Assembly (NCBI GenBank): GCA_965217865.1
Contig: CBDCJO010000002.1
Span: forward strand, 5,184,001-5,248,000
Reading direction: 5' to 3'
Length of the DNA stretch: 64,000 nt
Source of the DNA: Candidatus Latescibacterota bacterium
GTDB taxonomy: Bacteria; Latescibacterota; UBA2968; SICM01
Below, one piece after another: positions 1,958-13,558 of this stretch. The first letter of the stretch is position 1; every line of letters starts with the position of its first letter. Under the pieces are notes generated by a model. The model did no database searches and was not told where the DNA came from. It worked only from the letters and a program-made list of their open reading frames with translations. The position numbers and the translations under genes were made by a program.

Positions 1958-2970
1958 ATGCAAACAATAGAGCGATATGATGCGATCATCATCGGCACGG
2001 GACAATCCGGACCTTCCCTGGCAGCGGACCTGGCCGACGCAGGAAAACGGGTGGCGATTATCGAGCGGGGGCGGTTCGGGGGCACCTGCGTGAATACCGG
2101 CAGCACCTGATCATCATCGGCGGGAGCTATATCGGGTTGGAGTTCGCTCAAATGTATCGGCGATTTGGCAGCGAGGTGACAGTCGTCGACAGGAATTCAC
2201 ACTTGATCGCAAGGGATGATGAAGACATTTCCGATGCGGTCCGCGACATCGTGGAAAACGAGGGGATCAACATCCGGCTAGAGGCTGAATGCATTACGGG
2301 GGAGAATCGGGGAGATCAGGTCCTGGTCAAACTCGATTGCGAGCGTGGGGACAGGGCGGTGGCCGGATCGCATCTCCTGCTTGCGGTTGGGAGGACGCCC
2401 AATACGCAAGACCTGGGGTTGGAAAAGGCGGGGATCGAAGTCGACGAGCGCGGTTACATTGTCGTGGATGACCAGCTCCGCACCAGCGTGCCCGGGGTCT
2501 GGGCGTTGGGCGACTGCAACGGGAAGGGGGCTTTTACCCACACTTCATACAACGATTACGAGATCGTTGCCGCCAATCTGCTCGAGGAAGATCCGCGCCG
2601 TGTGAGCGACCGTATCCTCGCCTATGCCCTGTACATCGACCCGCCGTTGGGACGCGTCGGGATGACGGAAGCCGAGGTCCGTAAGTCCGGGCGCAAAGCC
2701 CTGATCGGGAAAAGGCCGATGACGAAGGTGGCCCGGGCGGTGGAGAAGGGAGAAACACAGGGTTTTATGAAAATCCTGATAGATGCCGAGACCAAGGAGA
2801 TTCTGGGTGCGGCGATACTGGGAATCGGGGGGGACGAGATCATCCATTCGATCCTCGATATCATGTATGCCAGGGCACCATACACGGTGATCCAGCGAGC
2901 CATGCACATCCACCCTACGGTGTCAGAACTGATCCCGACTATGCTGGGCGAGCTCAAACCCCTGGAATAA
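1958..2970 (+). pseudogene. FAD-dependent pyridine nucleotide-disulfide oxidoreductase (mercuric reductase/RclA-like) with internal deletion and frameshift
   Basis: 1958-2100 encodes MQTIERYDAIIIGTGQSG...GGTCVNTG, then joins out of frame at about 2100 to QHLIIIGGSYIGLEFAQM; C-terminal HIHPTVSE intact; second redox Cys region absent. Confidence 0.85.
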
Positions 2971-3038
2971 CGCACATCGGGTCCGGAAAACGTGCAACTT
3001 TCAGGATTTCAAAGCGTTTATACTTCAAATCACTCTTG

Positions 3039-3080
3039 TTGTGAACGATCGCGCAAATGTTGTGCTGAAAATCACACAAC
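3039..3080. promoter_or_regulatory. Candidate transcription-factor operators upstream of selenoprotein cluster
   Basis: TTGTGAA-CGAT-CGCGCAA (3039-3056) and inverted repeat GTTGTG-N10-CACAAC (3059-3080) in an AT-rich intergenic region. Confidence 0.35.
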
Positions 3081-3315
3081 CATATAAGTGATTGTTAACA
3101 AAAAAATAACGAATTTAAAGATCTTAAAATTGTGTGATTTAAAACTTTAGGAGAAGATCCACGACTCAGGATGGTCTGGCTTTTCCTTTATGGTTTTTCG
3201 TATAAATAGTATAGTTTTCAAATAGATGAACTCCACCTACTCCTTCTTCTGACGAAATGTCGGAATCCGGCATAGTTTTTCCATTCTGTATTCACTTTCC
3301 AATTATCTCGGGAAG

Positions 3316-4485
3316 GTGGTGTTCGTCAACTTCATCGGGTGGAGTTGACCGCATTGCATCACGGACGGTCCGCCCGTGGAAAAGAACATCTGGCAGAGAT
3401 TTAAGGATGAGGAGTTCCAGGCCCTGGGCGTCGAGATATGGGATGGGGGGGCCGCAGATGTGAATAGATTTTTCGTTGGGCTTACGAAAACAACTTACCC
3501 CGTCCTGTTAAAGGGAGGCCGCGTTGGGGCCCAATATGGTGTGGATCGTGCCACTTACATGGTAATGGACCAGGAGGGCATCGTTCGTTACCGGTCGGAA
3601 GGGAGACTCGGGCAACGCTACGACGAAGAGACTCTGATTTCAGTTATTCAGATTCTGTTGACCCCGGCGAATACCCCCCCGCGTATCGTCAATCCAATAC
3701 CGGACCAGGGCGGGGTCGGGATCAATACCATCAGGATCGACCTGGAAGGTTTCGTAGAGGACACGGAGGAGGGTCCCGCCAATCTGAACTGGCACGCAGA
3801 TGGGTTCGATCCCGAACTGATCATTGTCGGAGGACAGATGTCTGCAGGTCCACTGAAGTTCACACCCAGGCAGGATGCGCTGGGTCGAAATTTCAACATC
3901 TTGTTGATCGTGACGGACAGCAAGGGGGCCACGGCGGAGCAAGAGATCGCGCTTCGTCGGCTTCCGGCCGTTTTGTCCATCTCATCGGAAAATTTGAACT
4001 TCGGAGATGTGTTTGTGGGTTCCTCCCAGACCCTGAAGTTGAAGGTGTCGAACGAAGCTGAATCCGACGGGGAGGACCTGACTGTCGATCTGGCTTCCGT
4101 CAGTCCGACCTTCAGCGTTCCGGGCTCATCGGTGACGGTTCCTGCGGGAGAGTCCCGGGAGATCTCGATCGTGTATCGGCCGACAGAGGCGATATCATCC
4201 TCCGGAGAGCTGACGTTTTTGACGAACGATCCGGACCGAGAGTCGTTTGGAGTGTCTTTAACGGGGGTGGGATTGACCCCTCTGGATCTCCAGGTGGCCG
4301 TCACGGATTCGGATTTCGACGGGGACGGAAGGATCGACTTCGACGATTTCTTTTTGTTCGCAGGGGCGTTCGGGGGAACGAATCCTCTGTTCGACCTGGA
4401 CAGAAGCGGTCGCGTGGACCTGGACGATTTGTTTATCTTCGCGACTGATTTCGGGAAGATGGCAAAACCAGACGATGGACGATAA
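3316..4485 (+). CDS. Probable selenoprotein: UxxC redoxin + Ig-like + ASH-like Ig + dockerin/EF-hand-like tail (5'-truncated paralog; start uncertain)
   Basis: In-frame YSLSNYLGKVVFVNFIGWS-TGA(3346-3348)-PHCITDGPPVEKNIW continues into ORF 3376-4485; homology to the paralog starts at 3289; upstream in-frame stop at 3250. Confidence 0.8.
3346..3378 (+). promoter_or_regulatory. Bacterial SECIS-like hairpin
   Basis: UGA + 11 nt + CACGGAC-GGUCC-GCCCGUG (one mismatch). Confidence 0.7.
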
Positions 4486-4564
4486 AACCCTTCCGCTCAT
4501 CCCCACCGGAATACAGAATACAGAAGACAGGAGTCAGAAGAAAACCTTAATTCAAATCAGTCGG

Positions 4565-4720
4565 CGAGACATGAGAGTTCAGACGTGAGACGTGAAACGG
4601 CAAAAGGCAGTAGCAGGTGGCAGTGGCAGGAATGGCAAAGGCAGGGGTCAGAAGTCGGAGGTCGGGGAAATCGTAGCTTCGACGGAGTTTATCCTGAGCT
4701 AGTCGAAGGGCTCAGGACGT
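4565..4720 (+). repeat. Purine-rich oligomer tract followed by CTTCGAC...GCTCAGGAC REP-like element
   Basis: GTGAGACGTGAAAC, GGCAGTAGCAGGTGGCAG and GGTCAGAAGTCGGAGG units recur across the window. Confidence 0.75.
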
Positions 4721-4844
4721 GGCTTTCCCAGAACGGGAAGGGGAAAATGGCCGTTAATTTAGCAAAATGTCAACCACAAGGTCGGAGGAAATCGAAGATC
4801 GACTTTAGACCAGAACGAGTACCGATAAGGGAAAACGGTTCGGT

Positions 4845-6182
4845 ATGAAAAGGGTCATTTGGTTATTCATAGGGCTGGTCTTCTGGTCTGCAGGACCGAA
4901 CGCACCTGCCGTCTCCGCGGTGAGGGTTGGGGAAAACGCTCCGGATTTCACGTTGAAGGGGTTGGATAACAGGAATTATTCCCTGTCCGACTACCGTGGA
5001 AAGGTGGTGTTCGTCAACTTCTTCGGGTGGAACTGACCGCATTGTATAACGGACGGTCCGTCCGTTGAGAATAAAATCTGGCAGCGGTTTAAGGATCAGG
5101 AGTTTCAAGCCATCGGCGTTGATGTGTGGGACGGAAATCCGGATGGCGTAACGAAATTTTTCGTCGGGTTGACCAAGTCGACCTATCCGGTTCTAACCAA
5201 AGGCGGCCGGGTGGGGAGCCAGTACAGATTGGGCAACAATCACTTCATCGTTATCGATCAGGGGGGAGTTGTCCGATGGGTGTCGTCGGGAAGTCTTGGC
5301 AGTCGCTTCAATGAGAATGCCATCGTCTCCACCATCCAGTCTTTGCTTCCTCCTCCGAATACCCCACCAACCATCACCTCGTCGATTCCCGACCAGTCCG
5401 GTTCCGGGACAGAACCCATCGAGATCGACCTGGCTTCATTCGTTTCAGACGAAGAGGACGGCCCTCAAGATCTAATGTGGCGCGCCGAGGGATTCGATCC
5501 GGAGTTGATCGGGGTCACGGAAAATGGAACCGAAGGAGGGATGCTGAGTTTCACACCCAAGCCTGAGGTGCTGGGCCAGGATATTTCGGTTCTGTTGATC
5601 GTATCGGATACTCAGGGGGGTACCGCGGAGCAGTCGATCATCCTTCGGTGGACATTCCTGCCCGCGGTCCTGTCGGTCTCGATGGAGGATCTTAACTTCG
5701 GGAGCGTTTACGTCGGTTCCTCTCGGACTCTAAATTTGATCGTATCGAATGGAGCAGGTCCGGGTGGGGAGGACCTGGAAATTAGACCCTCCTCCGAGAG
5801 TTCGTCCTTCAGTATCGGGGACTCGTCCGTCTCGGTTCCGGCCGGAGAATCCCGGGAGATCTCAATCGTGTACCGGCCGATTGACGAGGTCATGTCTACC
5901 CACGAATTGACGTTCTTGACGAACGATCCCGAACACGAAGTGTTCGGGGTGTCCTTAACGGGATCGGGTCTGCCCCCGCTGGACATCCAGGTTGCTGTTT
6001 CGGATACTGATTTCGATGGGGACGGGAGGATCGATTTCGACGATTTCTTTATGTTCGCGGCGGCCTTCGGAGGAACGGATCCGGTTTTTGATCTGAATAA
6101 GAGCGGCCGTGTGGACTTCGACGATTTTTTTATCTTTGCGACTGACTTTGGAAAAATTGCGAAACCAGACGATGGACCATGA
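4845..6182 (+). CDS. Probable exported selenoprotein (445 aa, Sec64): signal peptide + AhpC/TSA redoxin (UPHC) + Ig-like + ASH-like Ig + dockerin/EF-hand-like tail
   Basis: ORFs 4845-5036 and 5124-6182 share a frame, separated only by TGA 5034-5036: APDFTLKGLDNRNYSLSDYRGKVVFVNFFGWN-U-PHC; tail DFDGDGRIDFDDFF...DLNKSGRVDFDDFF. Confidence 0.9.
5034..5066 (+). promoter_or_regulatory. Bacterial SECIS-like hairpin
   Basis: UGA + 11 nt + perfect stem AACGGAC-GGUCC-GUCCGUU. Confidence 0.8.
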
Positions 6183-6350
6183 AAGGCTGTCAAACGTGAG
6201 ACGTGAAACGGTAAAAGGCAGTAGCAGTAGCATGTGGCAGCAACATTCATTTGCCGGGAGAAGTAAAGTGATTTATATTATCGATAACCTCCTTCCCGTT
6301 CCTCATACCCTTGGGATTTCAAAATAGCCGGGTATCAGGAGGGCCGTCAA

Positions 6351-7259
6351 ATGCGGACAATGTTGATCGCTATTTCGACGATTCTGATCGGGTTCTCGGT
6401 TGCACAAGCATCCCCGTGGACATTGCCCAGGGGGGAGTTTTACGCACGGGGAACCGCCCTGGGTTCCCGATCCCGATGGCAGTTCAATAACGACTCGAAC
6501 AGGGTGAAGTTTCTGAATAATGGGCTCAGTCGAATGGTCGGGACTGCCGTCGACGGATCCTTCGGACTTCGTGATGACCTGATGGTCTCGATCGGAGTTC
6601 CCGTCATATTCTACGGTCTCCGGGATGATGATATCCAGGAGGAGGGTTTGAGCTTGGGGGATATCCGAATTTCAAGCCGATATCGTTTGTTTTCCAAAGG
6701 CCTGGTCGTGTCCCTGGAGGCGGGGGTGAAATTTCCCTCGGCCACACAGGTGGATCCTGCACGGGTACAGGTTGGTGAGGGGCAATACGACTTCGACGGC
6801 CTCGTTTCCTTCGGGTTTCTCTGGCCTTCAAAGGAAGGGTATTCAAGTATTGATGCGGGATATCGCATCCGCCGGAGGAGTGAGAAGACTGCGTTTAAAC
6901 CGGGAAATGAATTTATCTACCGGTTCGAAAGCGGATATCAGGCTGGCGACCGGGTTTCAATGCGGTTGAGCCTGGACGGATTCAAGAGTGAGATGGGGAA
7001 TACGGAGGTGTTCGGTGTTGCCGTTCCTACCCGCTTCTCAAATCGAAATCTCCTGGCGGTTGTGCCCGGCATCACACTGGCTGTAAAGGATAAACTTGGC
7101 CTGGATATGAACATCAACATCCCGGTTCTGGGACGGAACTATTATGCCGGAAGTCAGTTTTTTATCGGCCTTTCGTATAACAGCCTCGGGGTCCGGGCGT
7201 CGCTCAATCAATCTACCATCTCCGCTCCCCAGGGAGGATCGTGCTGCAGGATCCAGTAA
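6351..7259 (+). CDS. Outer-membrane beta-barrel protein (MetA-pathway/transporter-like) with C-terminal GGSCCRIQ tail
   Basis: Signal peptide (AQA cleavage), SLGDIRI motif, alternating amphipathic beta strands, SD GGAGG. Confidence 0.7.
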   Translation: MRTMLIAISTILIGFSVAQASPWTLPRGEFYARGTALGSRSRWQFNNDSNRVKFLNNGLSRMVGTAVDGSFGLRDDLMVSIGVPVIFYGLRDDDIQEEGLSLGDIRISSRYRLFSKGLVVSLEAGVKFPSATQVDPARVQVGEGQYDFDGLVSFGFLWPSKEGYSSIDAGYRIRRRSEKTAFKPGNEFIYRFESGYQAGDRVSMRLSLDGFKSEMGNTEVFGVAVPTRFSNRNLLAVVPGITLAVKDKLGLDMNINIPVLGRNYYAGSQFFIGLSYNSLGVRASLNQSTISAPQGGSCCRIQ

Positions 7260-7315
7260 TCGGAAGGATTCCGGAGAAAATTTGTAGAAGGCAATTCATC
7301 AGATCGGAGGTTATT

Positions 7316-7843
7316 GTGAAGTTTCCAAAGGTGATGGTGATTCTTCTTTTAATCGGGATGTTCTCCGTGCTTGGGGCACCTGTCTGGGCAAAGCCGTCGG
7401 TCTCCCGGGGGGATACGCTCACGGATTTCTCACTGAAGAGCATCGACGGCAAGGCCTTCCGACTGAGTGAAACCTATGGCAATAAAAAGGGACTCATCCT
7501 GACGGTGGGTGCGAGCTGGTGAGGGACCTGCCGGGCGGAGGTCTCCATCCTGAAAGATGTTTATAAGAGTTATACTCCAAAGAATATCGAGATGCTGTAT
7601 ATCAGCGTGGAGAGCAGGGAAAAAGCATCCGCTTACGCGAAGAAGAAAGAACTTCCCTATACCGTGCTTGTTGACGAGAATGCGGCGGTTGCGAAGAAAC
7701 TGGGTGTCTCGGCCATCCCCGCCCATTTCATACTCGATGCAGAGGGAAAGGTCCTCTTCAGCAATGTCGGAAAGCTCAAGAACCACGAAAAGTTGCTGAA
7801 CGAGCTGGTGGCGGAATTAGAAGCCGATAAGGAAAAGGGCTAA
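7316..7843 (+). CDS. Probable exported TlpA/ResA-like selenoprotein (175 aa, Sec69, W-U-G-T-C)
   Basis: SD GGAGG + GTG 7316; signal peptide; DFSLKSIDGK; GASW-TGA(7520-7522)-GTCRAEV in frame with ORF 7592-7843; cis-Pro motif AIP..FILDAEG. Confidence 0.9.
7520..7552 (+). promoter_or_regulatory. SECIS-like hairpin
   Basis: GGGCGGA-GGUC-UCCAUCC (7533-7550), GGUC loop 18 nt after UGA; an alternative fold GGGACCU/AGGUCUC is also possible. Confidence 0.55.
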
Positions 7844-7867
7844 CCCGCATTCCTGCGTCTCCTTTCG

Positions 7868-7922
7868 AAAAAAAAGGGTTGTTGATCTCAGGCTGAACGG
7901 CCGGATGAACGCCCTTTTTTTT
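7868..7922 (+). terminator. Intrinsic (probably bidirectional) terminator closing selenoprotein cluster
   Basis: A-run-GGGT...GCCC-T8 imperfect hairpin. Confidence 0.65.
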
Positions 7923-8060
7923 GTGTGTGACGAAGGTCCGTTTTTACATAAGGTTTGAGTGAAAGGTGTTATATTCTGGTTAGCCGAAGCTCTTCAACTA
8001 TTCAGATATCGATGTCGTGGCCTTTGGCCCTTACAGATAAACTTGCAGGAGGACGCGAAA

Positions 8061-9353
8061 ATGTCCGGATGGAAGTACAATACGATCGTCTACCAGCGGG
8101 AAGGCTGGTTGACCGATTTTCCGAGGATGTCGGTGGATGAGAACGACAGGATCACGGTTTGGTTCAATTCCCGAAAGATTATGCCCGGGTGGAACATGCA
8201 CGCAACGGCTGGGCGAGAGTGCTTCTCGGTCCGTATGCGCTCTCTGGACAAGGGCCTCACCTGGGAGTTGGCGTCAAAAGAACCTCTGCCCGGCCCTGAC
8301 GATGGGGGCAGACCTCGAAAGGATCTCTCCATTGCAACGGCTCGACTCTCGGACGGCTCCCTTGTGTATCTACAGTCCAGGTGGATATTCACTTCCGAGT
8401 CTGAAGCGGAAGAGTTGAAGAAAACAACCCACGTCCTGGAAGGAGCTGGACCCGGACAGGTGGCATACATGTCAAGAGTACACTGCTACCGGTTAACCGA
8501 CGGGGGCAGGACGTGGGACGATCGAGAACTGACGGAGATCGAGCCTTTCTATGTACTATCGGCGTGGGGTGGTGCCACCGGTACAGGCTGGATTGTGCTG
8601 GACGACGGCACGGTGATGGGCACGATGGAGGGAAAGTCGTCTCGTGATCAGGAACGCTGGATGACGTACATCCTTTCTTCAGGCGACTTCGGGAAGACCT
8701 GGAAGGCGAGTCCGGTCCCTTATGATCCGGCCGACCCCAGAGAATATGTGGAGTGCAGTATGATTCGGCTGAAGAGCGGCCGGATCCTGCTCGCGGCACG
8801 GAACCACGTGAAAGGCGTGAAGATTCAGGTGGCGTGGTCGGACGATAATGGAAAGACGTGGAGGCCTTTCCGCGAGACGGAAATGCTGGGCTACCCACCC
8901 CATTTGCTGGAGCTGAGGGATGGGAGGGTGCTGTGCACGTACGGGCGGCGCTTTCGTCCGTTCGGAATTCGGGGGTGTCTCTCCCCAAACGGGGGGGAGA
9001 CCTGGGACGCCGATAACGAGATCGTGATCGAGGACAACGGACCGGAGACCTACCTCATGTCGGGCGGGGTCGGGTATCCAATGTCGGCGCAGCTTTCGGA
9101 TGGGACGATCGTTACCGTGTACTACGACACAAAACCTGCGGAGATCGAGGGAGAATACGTTGCCAAGGGATGGAGACCGCAACCCGGACATGACTATTCT
9201 TTCTGCGGTGTCCCGTACATCGGCCTTGCCCGTTTCACCGCGGAATATGTGCGTCCCATCGGTCCGGAACCTGGAGACCCCACGGCACTTCCGTCCACGA
9301 AGAAAGAGATCGCACCGGATCAGGCGAAGATCTATGCCGCCACGGATATGTGA
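8061..9353 (+). CDS. BNR/Asp-box sialidase-family protein
   Basis: Repeated SxDxGxTW Asp boxes; GYP motif; SD before ATG 8061. Confidence 0.85.
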   Translation: MSGWKYNTIVYQREGWLTDFPRMSVDENDRITVWFNSRKIMPGWNMHATAGRECFSVRMRSLDKGLTWELASKEPLPGPDDGGRPRKDLSIATARLSDGSLVYLQSRWIFTSESEAEELKKTTHVLEGAGPGQVAYMSRVHCYRLTDGGRTWDDRELTEIEPFYVLSAWGGATGTGWIVLDDGTVMGTMEGKSSRDQERWMTYILSSGDFGKTWKASPVPYDPADPREYVECSMIRLKSGRILLAARNHVKGVKIQVAWSDDNGKTWRPFRETEMLGYPPHLLELRDGRVLCTYGRRFRPFGIRGCLSPNGGETWDADNEIVIEDNGPETYLMSGGVGYPMSAQLSDGTIVTVYYDTKPAEIEGEYVAKGWRPQPGHDYSFCGVPYIGLARFTAEYVRPIGPEPGDPTALPSTKKEIAPDQAKIYAATDM

Positions 9354-9586
9354 TCGGCCAGGGTCAGGGGTCGGAGGCCGGAGGTCAGGGAAGGAAAAGC
9401 CGTGAAACGTGAGACGTAAACGGGAAAAGCAAAAGGCAGTAGAAGGTGGCAGTAGCAGGAGAGGCAAAGGCATGGGTCAAGAGAGGAAACAGGGTTTAGA
9501 GGTCGGGGGTCAGGGGTCAGGCAAAAGTTCAGTTGTGGCGGGATTCAGATTTGCCAGGCAATTAGCGTGCAAAGGAGGATGTGATT

Positions 9587-10852
9587 ATGCCCGAGAATTC
9601 GAAGACTATTGAACTCTCCATTCTGGAGCCTCTGGGCATCGATAGACCCGCCTATCCGATCACCACGGGCGTTCCGTTCCCTCAGGGTGTCCTTCGGACA
9701 GAAACAAATTTACGTGTAGAGTCCGGTCGCAAAGAACTTCCTCTTCAGACCCGCACCCTTCTCGCCTGGCCGGATGGCAGCATCAAATGGGTCCTTCTGG
9801 ACTTTCAGACCGACCTGGAGGCGGGGAAGGATAACCGCTGTCATCTATTTTATGGCGACGAGGTCTCGTCGACTGAAAAGGCCGAGCATGAAATAACAAT
9901 AGAGCAGGATGAGGACAGGCTCACCGTGACAACCGGACCTCTGGCATTCTCTGTTGACTCAATTGGCACATTTCCCCTTCGTTCTGTCGCGTGCAATGGC
10001 AGGACGATCGTTCCTGAAGGCGCTCTTCGGTCGGAGATTTCTGTTGACGGCCGTCCCTACGAACTGCGCGTGACATCACTCCCGGTACTGGAGGAAGCGG
10101 GTTCTCTCCGAGCCGTGGTCAAGGTGGATGGAAAGGCCGTCTCGAAGGCCGGCGAAGAGAGCTTCGATGTAACGGCCCGCATCTATGCTTATGCCGGACA
10201 TCCCACGCTGCGGATATATCTCACCCTCACGAACCGCATTCCCAAAAGACTGGTGCATCTGGAAAACTGGAAGATACGTCTGAAGCCCCGGCTCAAGCCC
10301 GGTCCGGATGGGTTCATCGTTCTATCGAGCGAGGGAAAGTCCACCCAAGGGCTCCTGGGGGGTTACCGAAAGCTTCGCATCGGATTGGTTGATACAGATT
10401 ATGCCCCATGGCTTCCGGAGACCCATGGAATGGAAGCCTACGAGACGCCTGAGAAGGTCAAAAGGGCGGACCCCCAATGCACCGTCATACCAGGTGAAAA
10501 AGGCGAGTCAGAACTGCACCGACCCGGGGCCAACTGGACCACCATGTTTCCCGGGGCTGGAGTTCTCGGAGATGGCGAGATCACCGTGACATTTTCCTGC
10601 CGTCACCCGTGGCACAATGCCCCGAAGGAGATGGAGGTCAACACAGGGGCCATCGAATTGAGCCTGTATCCCGATTGGGCGGAGCCTCTGGAGTGGTACC
10701 GGGGTGTGGCCAAGACGCACGAACTCCTTCTCGACTTCCGTCCGGGGAAGCCTGATCCGGAGGAAAGGCTCGCGTTTACGTGCGGATTCGAGAAGCAACC
10801 GTATGTCCAGGTTCAAATAGCCATTTCGCCATTGTTAATTCTCCTTCGTTAG
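9587..10852 (+). pseudogene. YetA/exo-rhamnogalacturonan-lyase-like protein, C-terminally truncated at about 10812
   Basis: PITTGVPFPQG...WPDGSIKWVLLDF and AKTHE motifs shared with 15418 paralog; catalytic half missing. Confidence 0.7.
10800..10832 (-). pseudogene. N-terminal stub of YceI-like protein (MAKWLFEPGHT)
   Basis: SD AAGGAG + ATG at 10832 on minus strand; WxFEPGHT resembles the YceI N-terminus; similarity ends at the junction with the convergent gene. Confidence 0.5.
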
Positions 10853-11534: not shown

Positions 11535-11713
11535 CTGATCGGGTTTGGTGAGATCCGTTGGCACGGCCAGCCCTTTACCGCCCTCGCTCCCGATCCGTTC
11601 CACGGTTTCCTCTAACCGCTCCTGCCGCCGGCCGCAACAAACAACCCTGGCTCCGTGGTGTCCGAATTCGAGCGCCAGGGCCCGGCCGATGCCACTTCCC
11701 GAGCCGGTCACGA
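11535..11713 (-). pseudogene. SDR oxidoreductase fragment
   Basis: VTGSGSGIGRALA...DLTKPDQ; N-terminus cut by IS3, C-terminal part absent. Confidence 0.8.
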
Positions 11714-11770
11714 TGGACTTGACCCGGTTTCGTGGATACCTTATTACTTGGCAGAAAGGAGGATGCTACG

Positions 11771-12066
11771 ATGCCGAGGTCACATTCGCCGTATCCACCG
11801 GAGTTCAAGCGGCAGATTGTAGAACTGGTGCGAGCGGGTCGCACGCCCCATGAGTTGTCCCGTGAGTTCGAGCCGTCGGCCCAGGCGATCCGGATCTGGA
11901 TGAGGGCCTCCGCAGTGACGGTCTGATCACCGAGGAGCGGGAGGAGATCAGACGACTGCGCCGCGAGAATAGGCAGTTGCGACAGGAGCGGGAGATCCTT
12001 GCAAAAGCCGCGGCCTGGTTCGCTCGGGAGACCAACTCGGTGCCAGGGGAGTCTACGAGTTCGTGA
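11771..12066 (+). pseudogene. IS3 OrfA with small deletion/frameshift at about 11893
   Basis: YPPEFKRQIVELVRAG...SAQAIR then shifted frame DLDEGLRSDGL...EILAKAAAWFARE. Confidence 0.8.
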
Positions 12067-12923
12067 AAGCCAATCAGGCCTTCTATAAAGTAGCCACGAT
12101 GTGCCGGGTCCTGGAAGTCTCCACCAGTGGGTACTACGCGTGGCTCAAGCGGCCGCTGTCGGCACGAGCGCAGGCCGATGTGGCTCTGACGGAACGGATC
12201 GTGAAGATTCACAAGTGTTCTGATGGCACCTACGGTGTCCCGCGCATATACGAGGAGCTTGTAGCCGAGGGGGAGCGGATCGGTCGCAAGCGCGTTGCGC
12301 GGTTGATGCGTGCTGCAGGCCTGGAGGGCGTAAGTCGTCGCAAACGGCATCGAACCACCTACCGTGATCGCGATGGGCGCGTCGCTGCTGACCTGGTCAA
12401 TCGAGATTTCACGGCTAACGGGCCAGACCAGCTCTGGGTAGCCGACATCACTTACATCAGTACGTGGGCCGGCTTCCTGTATCTCGCGGTCGTTGTGGAC
12501 GCCTGGAGCCGCCGCGTCGTTGGCTGGGCGATGGCGACCCATCTGCGCGCCGAGCTGGTGCTCGAGGCGTTGAATATGGCGCTCTGGCAACGACAGCCGG
12601 AAGCCGTCATCCATCACTCCGACCAGGGATGTCAGTACACCTCCATTGCCTTCGGTCTACGGTGCCGCAAGGCCGGTGTCCGGCCCTCTATGGGCTCCAC
12701 CGGTGACTGCTACGACAACGCGTTATGCGAGAGCTTCTTCGCCACGCTCGAATGCGAACGCCTGGATCGCCGAAACTACCGCACACAGGCCGAAGCCCGG
12801 ATGTCCGTATTTCAATACATCGAGGGCTGGTACAACTCCCATCGGCGACACTCAGCACTCGGATATCTCTCTCCAATGAACTTTGAGCAGACCTCCAGCG
12901 CTGTTGCCCATGAAGCCGAATGA
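12063..12923 (+). CDS. IS3 OrfB transposase (integrase core)
   Basis: WVADITY, HHSDQGCQY, DNALCESFF, YNSHRRHSALGY. Confidence 0.95.
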   Translation: MKANQAFYKVATMCRVLEVSTSGYYAWLKRPLSARAQADVALTERIVKIHKCSDGTYGVPRIYEELVAEGERIGRKRVARLMRAAGLEGVSRRKRHRTTYRDRDGRVAADLVNRDFTANGPDQLWVADITYISTWAGFLYLAVVVDAWSRRVVGWAMATHLRAELVLEALNMALWQRQPEAVIHHSDQGCQYTSIAFGLRCRKAGVRPSMGSTGDCYDNALCESFFATLECERLDRRNYRTQAEARMSVFQYIEGWYNSHRRHSALGYLSPMNFEQTSSAVAHEAE

Positions 12924-13029
12924 ATCGCAACTGATAAACCGTCCGCTAAACCGGGGTAACTCCAGTTTCGCGTACAAAGGTCGGATACAAATGGGACCTC
13001 CGGCTCCTTCGACTGCGTCTCCGAAGTGG

Positions 13030-13266
13030 AAACGGAAGAAAAACGGAAGGTAAACGGAAGGTTTTTACTGAACAGGGTCGGGAAAAGCAAGGGGCCAGGG
13101 AAAAGCAGTAGCAGTGTAGCAGGTGGCAGGAAAGTCAAAGGCAGGGGAACCAAAGGCGGAGGTCAGGGAAAAGCAGTAGCAGTAGCAGGTGGCAGGAAGA
13201 GCAAAGGCAGGGGCAGGAAAGCAAAGGCAGTAGCAGTGGCAGTAGCAGGAAAAAGCAAAGGCAAAC
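13030..13266 (+). repeat. Long purine-rich low-complexity tract (GCAGTAGCAG / GCAAAGGCAG units)
   Basis: Repeated AAAGCAGTAGCAGTAGCAGGTGGCAGGAA units. Confidence 0.85.
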
Positions 13267-13558
13267 CTAAGCTTGGCTGAGCAGAGACACCGTTTTTCCA
13301 ATTCTGCACGCGCGTGCAGAATTAACCTAGGTCGGGGTCGAGGGAAATCAAAATCATAAAAAAACCAAAGAAATATTGACTCAAATGCTTGGTTCAACCG
13401 GAGGTTCTCCATCATTAATAATGTGCTTTTATTCCCCTTGACTTAAGAACTGCCCCCCCCTTACATTGTCCGGGAACGCCTCTAAAACGGGTGGGTTAAT
13501 TTCCTGAATGTGCCGAGATTGGTGAATTGGTATTTTACAGATTGGAGGACGGGGTCGG

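Follow-up and report, generated by a model that had tools for sequence, protein, structure and literature searches.

Bacterial selenoproteins in which selenocysteine (Sec, U) takes the first position of a UxxC motif within a thioredoxin fold belong to several catalogued families. The available text of PMC13188914 lists such families under PF00578, PF08534 and cd02966, together with two multi-selenoprotein operons, SAO and Tso, and it provides the model of the bacterial selenocysteine insertion sequence (bSECIS) used here for comparison. In this work we analyze a four-gene cluster of three redoxin genes, each with an in-frame TGA, and one outer-membrane barrel gene, located in a 64,000-nucleotide stretch of contig CBDCJO010000002.1 from a Candidatus Latescibacterota bacterium (hereafter, the window). 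The genome holding the window, G000, spans 6.4 Mb and is 96% complete and 9% contaminated. The redoxins are very probably genuine selenoproteins of catalogued families in an undescribed arrangement, and one of their genes is probably silent in this strain; less expected is the clade of Cys-Cys-tailed channels to which the barrel belongs, and its tie to metal operons. The genes and recoding sites are the following:

3289..4485, + strand: gene 1 (rx1), 5'-truncated Sec-redoxin
3346..3348, + strand: in-frame TGA of gene 1, motif GWS-U-PHC
4845..6182, + strand: gene 2 (rx2), complete Sec-redoxin of 445 residues, predicted to be exported
5034..5066, + strand: in-frame TGA and SECIS-like hairpin of gene 2, motif GWN-U-PHC
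6351..7259, + strand: gene 3, outer-membrane barrel of 302 residues with the PF13557/COG4313/FapF fold
7316..7843, + strand: gene 4 (rx3), TlpA/ResA-like Sec-redoxin of 175 residues, predicted to be exported, with W-U-G-T-C and cis-Pro
7520..7550, + strand: in-frame TGA and SECIS-like hairpin of gene 4, motif ASW-U-GTC

Probable selenocysteine codons and redoxin anatomy

As the first-pass annotation of this DNA had stated, the four genes are co-oriented on the + strand, and single in-frame TGA codons at 3346, 5034 and 7520 replace the first cysteine of a CxxC motif. When TGA is read as Sec, a match to PF00578 (AhpC-TSA) spans the codon in genes 1, 2 and 4 (27.9, 54.3 and 87.8 bits, respectively; cut-off 26), and the U/C pair of the motif provides the sole Cys/Sec residues of each redoxin. 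A genome-wide screen, using a dicodon coding score on both flanks of each TGA, passed 2330 candidates, of which 139 carry a Cys motif; the three sites rank 1st, 4th and 15th by coding score among these 139 and thus exceed chance. A profile built from 86 fetched relatives located 18 redoxin places in G000, with UxxC in four: genes 1, 2 and 4, and a gene 2 paralog at C2:3523384. The machinery that the annotation proposed to look for is complete, with selA (578 bits), selB (356), selD (386) and the selC product tRNA-Sec (70.7) all over their cut-offs; selD of G000 itself has an in-frame TGA.

The aligned Sec codon was inspected in 26 loci, 20 from the class (23 rows) and six from other phyla. Among the class rows, 21 carry TGA (the window being one of them), one carries TGC and one does not cover the site, giving 21 of 22 scorable rows; the lone TGC belongs to a paralog in G001, a genome of a sister genus in the same family as G000. 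Loci from other phyla have Cys (5/6) or Thr (1/6) at this position, in agreement with the earlier expectation that homologs would carry Cys or TGA there. The TGA is retained at the same codon across four families, and that of gene 4 is also kept in G001. Of 61 related genomes, 51 contain a match to the redoxin domain of gene 2, and most of the top matches have one TGA. No TGC or TGT, which would have spoken against recoding, occurs at the three sites among the rows listed from contigs of public runs. The UGA in these redoxin genes is, judging from sequence, almost certainly read as Sec, because of the conservation of the TGA and the presence of the machinery more than because of SECIS evidence. 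Database versions of these redoxins begin after the TGA, consistent with the earlier remark that known UxxC redoxin selenoproteins are split by gene callers; exported Sec-redoxins are hidden in databases throughout the class because gene calls cut them at this codon.

A hairpin follows each of the three TGAs, its loop starting with G at a distance of 17-19 nt, as in the bSECIS model. In gene 2 the hairpin has 9-10 pairs, a G-first apical loop 18-19 nt downstream and a z of -2.73, and it is more stable than expected from synonymous recoding (p 0.024). The gene 4 hairpin (loop GGUC, 17 nt downstream) gives p 0.022 in the same comparison and has a competing alternative fold, while that of gene 1 (loop GGUCC, 18 nt downstream, one mismatch) is weaker (z -1.1, p 0.13). 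Values of z < -1.64 against synonymous recodings were obtained for 14/30 Sec forms versus 7/74 Cys forms, counts in which kin are not independent. Three results weigh against the hairpins as evidence of recoding: the loop rule is also satisfied by 892 of the 2330 background TGAs, leaving modest SECIS support; the gene 1 hairpin is not significant; and fixed-register covariation across 13 sequences was no better than in shuffles. The register of the hairpin seems to differ from one family to another. An Rfam scan of positions 2900-8100 returned zero matches. The machinery, the conserved TGA and the Cys homologs, with modest added weight from hairpins of the bacterial type, leave the proposed selenoprotein status strongly supported.

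Genes 1 and 2 are paralogs (258/398 residues identical), each composed of a UxxC redoxin domain, an Ig-like domain, an ASH/choice-of-anchor-D domain and a dockerin/EF-hand-like tail; a protein atlas gives a dockerin lead of 0.75 for gene 2. Judged by eye and hydropathy, the N-termini of gene 2, the barrel and gene 4 resemble signal peptides; the annotation had noted two. The thioredoxin cis-Pro is present in gene 4 and missing in genes 1 (Ala) and 2 (Asn), and 35 rows of gene 1/2 type, read from a 41-row alignment, lack it at the corresponding position too. This identifies gene 4 as the TlpA-like reductase and places genes 1 and 2 otherwise within PF00578. Of the AhpC/TSA and TlpA-like types named in the annotation, the TlpA-like one fits gene 4 only; genes 1 and 2 are of a redoxin-Ig-dockerin-like type.

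Gene 4 has the features of TlpA/ResA/DsbE proteins, namely an exported thioredoxin fold, W-U-x-x-C and a cis-Pro loop. Its top NCBIfam match is ResA (E 2e-21), and it remains under the curated cut-offs of both ResA (76.5 of 170 bits) and DsbE (55.4 of 123 bits); it is predicted to work like a TlpA without belonging to a named subfamily. Genes 1 and 2 reach no NCBIfam redoxin model at cut-off. A peroxiredoxin identity for these two was considered and rejected: the PxxxTxxC/U motif, whose second position is the peroxidatic one, is absent, the motif being G-W-x-U-P-H-C with Sec first, and at the place of the peroxiredoxin catalytic Arg gene 1 has an Arg one residue off and gene 2 has none. The same redoxin is combined with dockerin-like or FlgD-Ig tails in class relatives and with a secretion-sorting tail in a Bacteroidetes homolog, so genes 1 and 2 likely encode exported, tail-anchored enzymes.

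Two proteins of this type outside the cluster were observed. A third Sec-redoxin-Ig-ASH-dockerin copy lies at G000:C2:3522113-3523453 (L224), with UPDC and without a barrel; 343 of its 445 codons are identical to those of gene 2, and mobile-element-like frames, recognized by eye, surround it. At L128:5618-7279 (G015), a Sec-redoxin is joined to a serine hydrolase domain of the beta-lactamase family and ends in a FlgD-Ig tail.

Coding sequence had been described as intact on both sides of each TGA. Genes 2 and 4 look complete, whereas gene 1 has no start: just 31 codons separate the upstream stop from the TGA, there is no ATG and no signal peptide, no clear ribosome-binding site precedes any of the few candidate starts, and the gene begins abruptly at a point where gene 2 is already 44 residues in. 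The break coincides with the following feature:

3288..3295, + strand: junction left by the apparent loss of ~170 bp between short direct repeats

A contig of run X10 has 172 extra bases between the segments matching 3125-3294 and 3288-3331. Runs X8 and X14 have loose ends at 3288 and 3295; the end before 3288 is similar to gene 2 immediately ahead of the region common to both genes, while the end after 3295 finishes in a purine-rich stretch resembling a ribosome-binding site. An X1 contig crosses the junction exactly as the window does, while X2 contigs break at 3295 and 3288, a pattern that the presence of both gene 1 alleles would fit. Because contigs of related strains hold ~170 extra bases there, gene 1 likely lost its 5' end through a short-repeat deletion in this strain and not in related strains, and it is probably silent here. 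The G001 counterpart begins with a signal-peptide-like segment and carries Cys in place of Sec.

Just upstream, at 1958-2970, lies a pyridine nucleotide-disulfide oxidoreductase (MerA/RclA-like) with an apparent internal deletion; its two pieces, which lie in different frames, cover model positions 1-45 and 165-445. This flavoprotein was rejected as an electron source for the cluster, being broken and not found beside the cluster of G001.

The Cys-Cys-tailed barrel and its neighborhoods

The product of gene 3 matches PF13557 at 54.6 bits (cut-off 22). An AlphaFold2 model generated from 118 sequences reached a predicted local distance difference test score (pLDDT) of 91.5 and shows 12 strands, counted from its printed elements; a single-sequence fold (pLDDT 32) was discarded. 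Foldseek placed FapF and the COG4313 channel 4RL8 at the top, with E values of 3e-11 to 3e-10 and TM ~0.7, and the protein atlas returned only unnamed or PF13557 clusters. The tail is modeled with low confidence (residues 271-279 under 50 pLDDT). The only cysteines of the barrel, C298 and C299, lie in the ending GSCCRIQ of this flexible tail of ~25 residues. According to the available text of the 4RL8 paper (PMC4493636), the N-terminus of the channel is on the periplasmic side; with an even number of strands, the C-terminal Cys-Cys tail of the modeled barrel should also face the periplasm.

The tail cysteine pair is kept in 17 of 18 aligned rows (near-duplicates included), and among the best 150 of 1148 profile matches a CC ending occurs in 13 and CxxxC in three. 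A tree was built from 37 full-length sequences after trimming of the tails, leaving out rows without the last-strand motif or outside 255-350 residues; in it, 15 CC and two CxxxC barrels form one clade with support 100/99, and the tail cysteines are retained across the clade down to ~30% identity. Full-length tailed barrels were found in three of 168 genomes of the phylum, none in 401 genomes of the phylum of L029 (Bacteroidetes), and none on plasmids. The 301 genomes of the phylum of L068 (Thermoanaerobaculia) gave five barrel matches whose alignments end at 275-280, before the tail; the one whose C-terminus was inspected is tailless. A protein cluster of the G001-type barrel includes a member from Candidatus Handelsmanbacteria, a lineage of Latescibacterota, and the family of G000 is likely this lineage. 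Separately, a cysteine-free PF13557 barrel (L218, G001:C296) adjoins HMA-like (CAFC) and thioredoxin-like (CAAC) genes, recognized by eye.

The four-gene order recurs in one sister genus. In G001 the order is a Cys-redoxin-Ig-ASH-dockerin gene, a Sec-redoxin-dockerin gene, the barrel (61% identical) and a Sec-TlpA, and the flanking genes differ from those of the window; L160 has the same sequence as G001 and is therefore not an independent locus. In L159 and L163, redoxin-dockerin genes directly precede the barrel, where both sequences end. Close rx3 orthologs occur in two of 132 class genomes (G000 and G001), each directly behind a CC barrel. A redoxin lies within ~2 kb in 6/6 clade loci with flanks, versus 1/41 distinct tailless class loci (1.5 kb), a comparison in which the L163 barrel lacks its tail end through truncation, a single genus supplies many of the controls and the clade loci include close kin. 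Two tailless control loci have a CxxC-less redoxin 2-3 kb away. Twenty tailless loci have 115 flanking frames, and Pfam annotation of 86 of these identified the heme-synthesis family GlutR in nine, DUF3179 in three and AhpC-TSA in one, with no HMA and no MerT.

Related barrels also lie in neighborhoods resembling mer and cop operons. Locus L161 contains MerR-like (147 bits, cut-off 151), sigma/anti-sigma, HMA and, under its cut-off, MerT-like genes, an HMA protein with UxxU, two CC barrels, CopZ_Nterm_CC (131 bits, cut-off 100) and a redoxin without CxxC, and G116 has a row of HMA, CC barrel, CopZ_Nterm_CC, a UxxU CopZ-like protein and TlpA. The double-Sec UxxU HMA/CopZ-like proteins beside CC barrels (L161:4230-4862 and L194:813-1043) are possibly an uncatalogued form, since they have no UxxU_metal_bind match in NCBIfam at E <= 0.001.

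Within G000, a tailless COG4313-type barrel at C2:4472000-4485000 (L195) forms part of a run DUF255-TlpA-barrel-DUF3179-DUF3179-ArsM, the ArsM being of the arsenosugar type (505 bits, cut-off 400); thiol and metalloid neighbors are thus not confined to tailed barrels. After ArsM follows a gene, DUF3179-like by eye, with an in-frame TGA in UxxC at C2:4474866. At G000:C2:947500-951700, a radical SAM gene ends in C-TGA-AEP, and a small exported HMA protein ending in MCCKING lies ~2.5 kb off.

Transcription of the four genes as a single unit is only putative, because repeats lie in the gaps after genes 1 and 2. These intergenic purine-rich repeats, at 4488-4660 and 6185-6240, have 36-83 genome copies of at least 40 nt; they show very high contig depth, and similar units lie near 9400-9500 and 13050-13300. 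Downstream of gene 4 lies one further element:

7866..7922, + strand: possible terminator, a long imperfect hairpin flanked by A- and T-tracts

The annotation had the cluster closed by one terminator. Positions 7844-7930 do fold into a long imperfect hairpin (-29.0 kcal/mol), whereas a terminator scan called none after 7843. Elsewhere in the window, a PcRGLX-like gene at 9581-10852 is possibly cut short, and transposase frames, IS3-like by eye, lie beside a short-chain dehydrogenase fragment at 11700-12960.

A possible envelope module and its alternatives

The four genes may form an envelope thiol/selenol module in which the CC tail of the channel captures soft metals or metalloids such as Hg, Cu or As and the Sec redoxins act as reductants, a reading that, on the sequence data, we hold at a little short of an even balance. 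In favor of the module are the recurrence of its gene order in a sister genus and the conserved Cys-Cys tail, a feature absent from the annotation, and its metal-handling side gains support from the mer/cop-like neighborhoods of related barrels. In such a system, the 12-stranded barrel would place its C-terminal tail in the periplasm, as COG4313 channels do their N-terminus. Gene 4, as a TlpA-type UxxC reductase, would take electrons from DsbD and reduce this tail. DsbD is the usual electron donor to periplasmic TlpA-type proteins, and G000 encodes a three-domain DsbD in a 641-codon frame with the N-terminal, membrane and thioredoxin Cys pairs. The reduced vicinal dithiol would then bind ions entering through the channel and hand them on or hold them, while genes 1 and 2, exported and attached by dockerin-like tails, would act on envelope or surface thiols or oxidants. 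A more specific version, in which the Cys-Cys tail is a swinging arm recharged by the Sec-TlpA that traps Hg/Cu/As at the outer membrane, with a Sec relay to the surface through the dockerin-anchored selenoenzymes, is conceivable and rather doubtful.

Several observations weigh against metal handling by the cluster. No annotated flanking gene of the window or G001 loci is a metal gene; G000 has no MerA over cut-off; tblastn of G000 with the MerT, HMA, CopZ and UxxU proteins of L161 and G116 gave zero matches; and the two HMA matches of G000 lie elsewhere than the cluster. The metal link itself consists of two loci and one fused protein read by eye, and in L161 both MerR and MerT are under their curated cut-offs. 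Characterized COG4313 members have been proposed as channels for the uptake of hydrophobic molecules, according to the available text of PMC4493636. A periplasmic CC could be a plain oxidized structural disulfide, and since the start of gene 1 is lost, at least one part of the module is dispensable. The envelope redox or metal module of the annotation keeps the order in G001, the CC tail and the mer/cop-like kin on its side, but only two of its three selenoprotein genes look complete; nothing points to the selenium-specific redox system that was also proposed.

It is possible, though unlikely, that the cluster is instead a metal-free redox relay or export scaffold, the CC barrel having replaced the DUF6029 barrel of TlpA/Sec-redoxin operons and its cysteines passing TlpA electrons to the exported redoxins or aiding their export or anchoring. 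DUF6029 occurs within 3 kb of a Sec-redoxin in 13 of the 35 class genomes where both are listed (coordinates entered by hand from profile listings), and the TlpA-DUF6029-redoxin trio is also found in a Bacteroidetes locus, whose redoxin is of the Cys type with a secretion-sorting tail. The inspected DUF6029 proteins have a C-terminal CxxxxC in 10 of 11 loci; this motif precedes the last strand and was seen beside TlpA and an exported redoxin in L125, L126, L127, L130, L029 and L200-L205. DUF6029 has no match in the three genomes of the family, nor by tblastn in G000, which suggests replacement and supports a relay, although the search misses some true genes and the absence from the family is not firm. 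The top structural match, FapF, is moreover a polypeptide export channel. However, the CC tail is predicted to be periplasmic and the DUF6029 motif to lie in an outer loop, and the two are not equivalent because they are on opposite predicted sides; the two kinds of barrel seem to occur together in a single metal operon of G116 (the DUF6029-like gene being cut and recognized by eye); and the lumen of a 12-stranded barrel is narrow for a folded redoxin.

The remaining explanations carry less weight. It is improbable that ordinary envelope antioxidants or disulfide reductases and an unrelated hydrophobic uptake channel became neighbors by chance in the ancestor of one family. The full order is indeed restricted to two genera of one family, the third rx2 copy in G000 has no adjoining barrel, Sec-redoxins of this type are barrel-free in most class genomes, and repeats part the genes of the window; yet the tail Cys are kept across the clade to ~30% identity, the independent loci L161 and G116 again pair the barrel with thiol/metal genes, and close rx3 orthologs are found only beside the barrel. 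Still less probable is selenium acquisition, in which channel and dithiol would take up selenite or selenide for Sec synthesis and the redoxins would reduce it. Selenoproteins adjoin the clade barrel in 6/6 loci with flanks (window, G001, L159, L163, L161 and G116), and no specific high-affinity selenium transporter is known in prokaryotes according to the available text of PMC13188914. Against this, the nearest sel genes lie megabases off (selA, selB, selC and selD alike), the neighbors in L161 and G116 are of mer/cop type, and selenium uptake built from selenoproteins would be circular. That the TGAs are true stops in decayed genes is barely credible: gene 1 is truncated and the flavoprotein just upstream is broken, but frames stay open 100-380 codons beyond the TGA, which is kept at one codon across four families and has no TGC/TGT variant among the rows listed, and full Sec machinery is present.

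If the proposed metal binding by the envelope thiol/selenol module is true, the barrel would be a candidate outer-membrane step in soft-metal and arsenic handling by uncultured marine and subsurface bacteria. The 25-residue tail and the 16-kDa reductase make a small pair suitable for testing.

Comparison with described systems

Literature searches, with supplements outside their scope, found neither this operon nor COG4313 barrels with a CC tail described, in agreement with the earlier statement that the combination was not recognized as described. Neither a dockerin-tailed redoxin nor a COG4313 barrel is among the listings in the available text of PMC13188914. The redoxins of the window resemble the Prx-like thiol:disulfide oxidoreductase (PF00578) and Redoxin (PF08534) UxxC selenoproteins in having Sec first in UxxC within a thioredoxin fold; genes 1 and 2 differ in their added Ig-like, ASH and dockerin-like domains and in lacking cis-Pro. 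Gene 4 shares its signal peptide, W-U-x-x-C and cis-Pro with TlpA/ResA/DsbE and the thiol-disulfide isomerase-like UxxC selenoproteins of cd02966, is not of the UGC or WAxxUGC subtype, and, unlike TlpA/ResA/DsbE, is paired with a barrel and not with cytochrome c maturation genes.

The SAO and Tso operons (bioRxiv 10.1101/2022.07.06.499078; PMC13188914), as far as the available texts describe them, likewise cluster several selenoproteins with a transporter. A Cys-Cys ending is reported for SaoC and HgcB, and the authors tie CU/CC motifs to heavy-metal contact. SAO, however, is an ABC/MerB-like system found mostly in Firmicutes without an outer membrane, unlike the cluster of the window, and no NCBIfam model of a SAO or Tso component is among the matches of the four proteins at E <= 0.01. 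In the mer operon (MerR, MerT, MerP, MerA), Cys pairs serve as soft-metal ligands, as proposed for the CC tail; the MerA of G001 ends in SCCAA, and relatives of the barrel lie in mer-like operons, whereas the locus in the window lacks mer genes and no MerA of G000 exceeds its cut-off.

Gene 3 shares a 12-stranded barrel with COG4313/PF13557 channels (Pput2725 4RL8, SphA, TcpY) and with FapF (5O65, 5O67), at 11-14% identity, and adds to it the Cys-Cys tail; the word cysteine is absent from the available main text of the 4RL8 paper (PMC4493636). The neighbors of COG4313 and FapF barrels are aromatic catabolism or amyloid genes, whereas those of the barrels described here are redox and metal genes. 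A barrel family known for hydrophobic uptake and amyloid export thus includes a dithiol-tailed clade located near mercury and copper genes and selenoenzymes.

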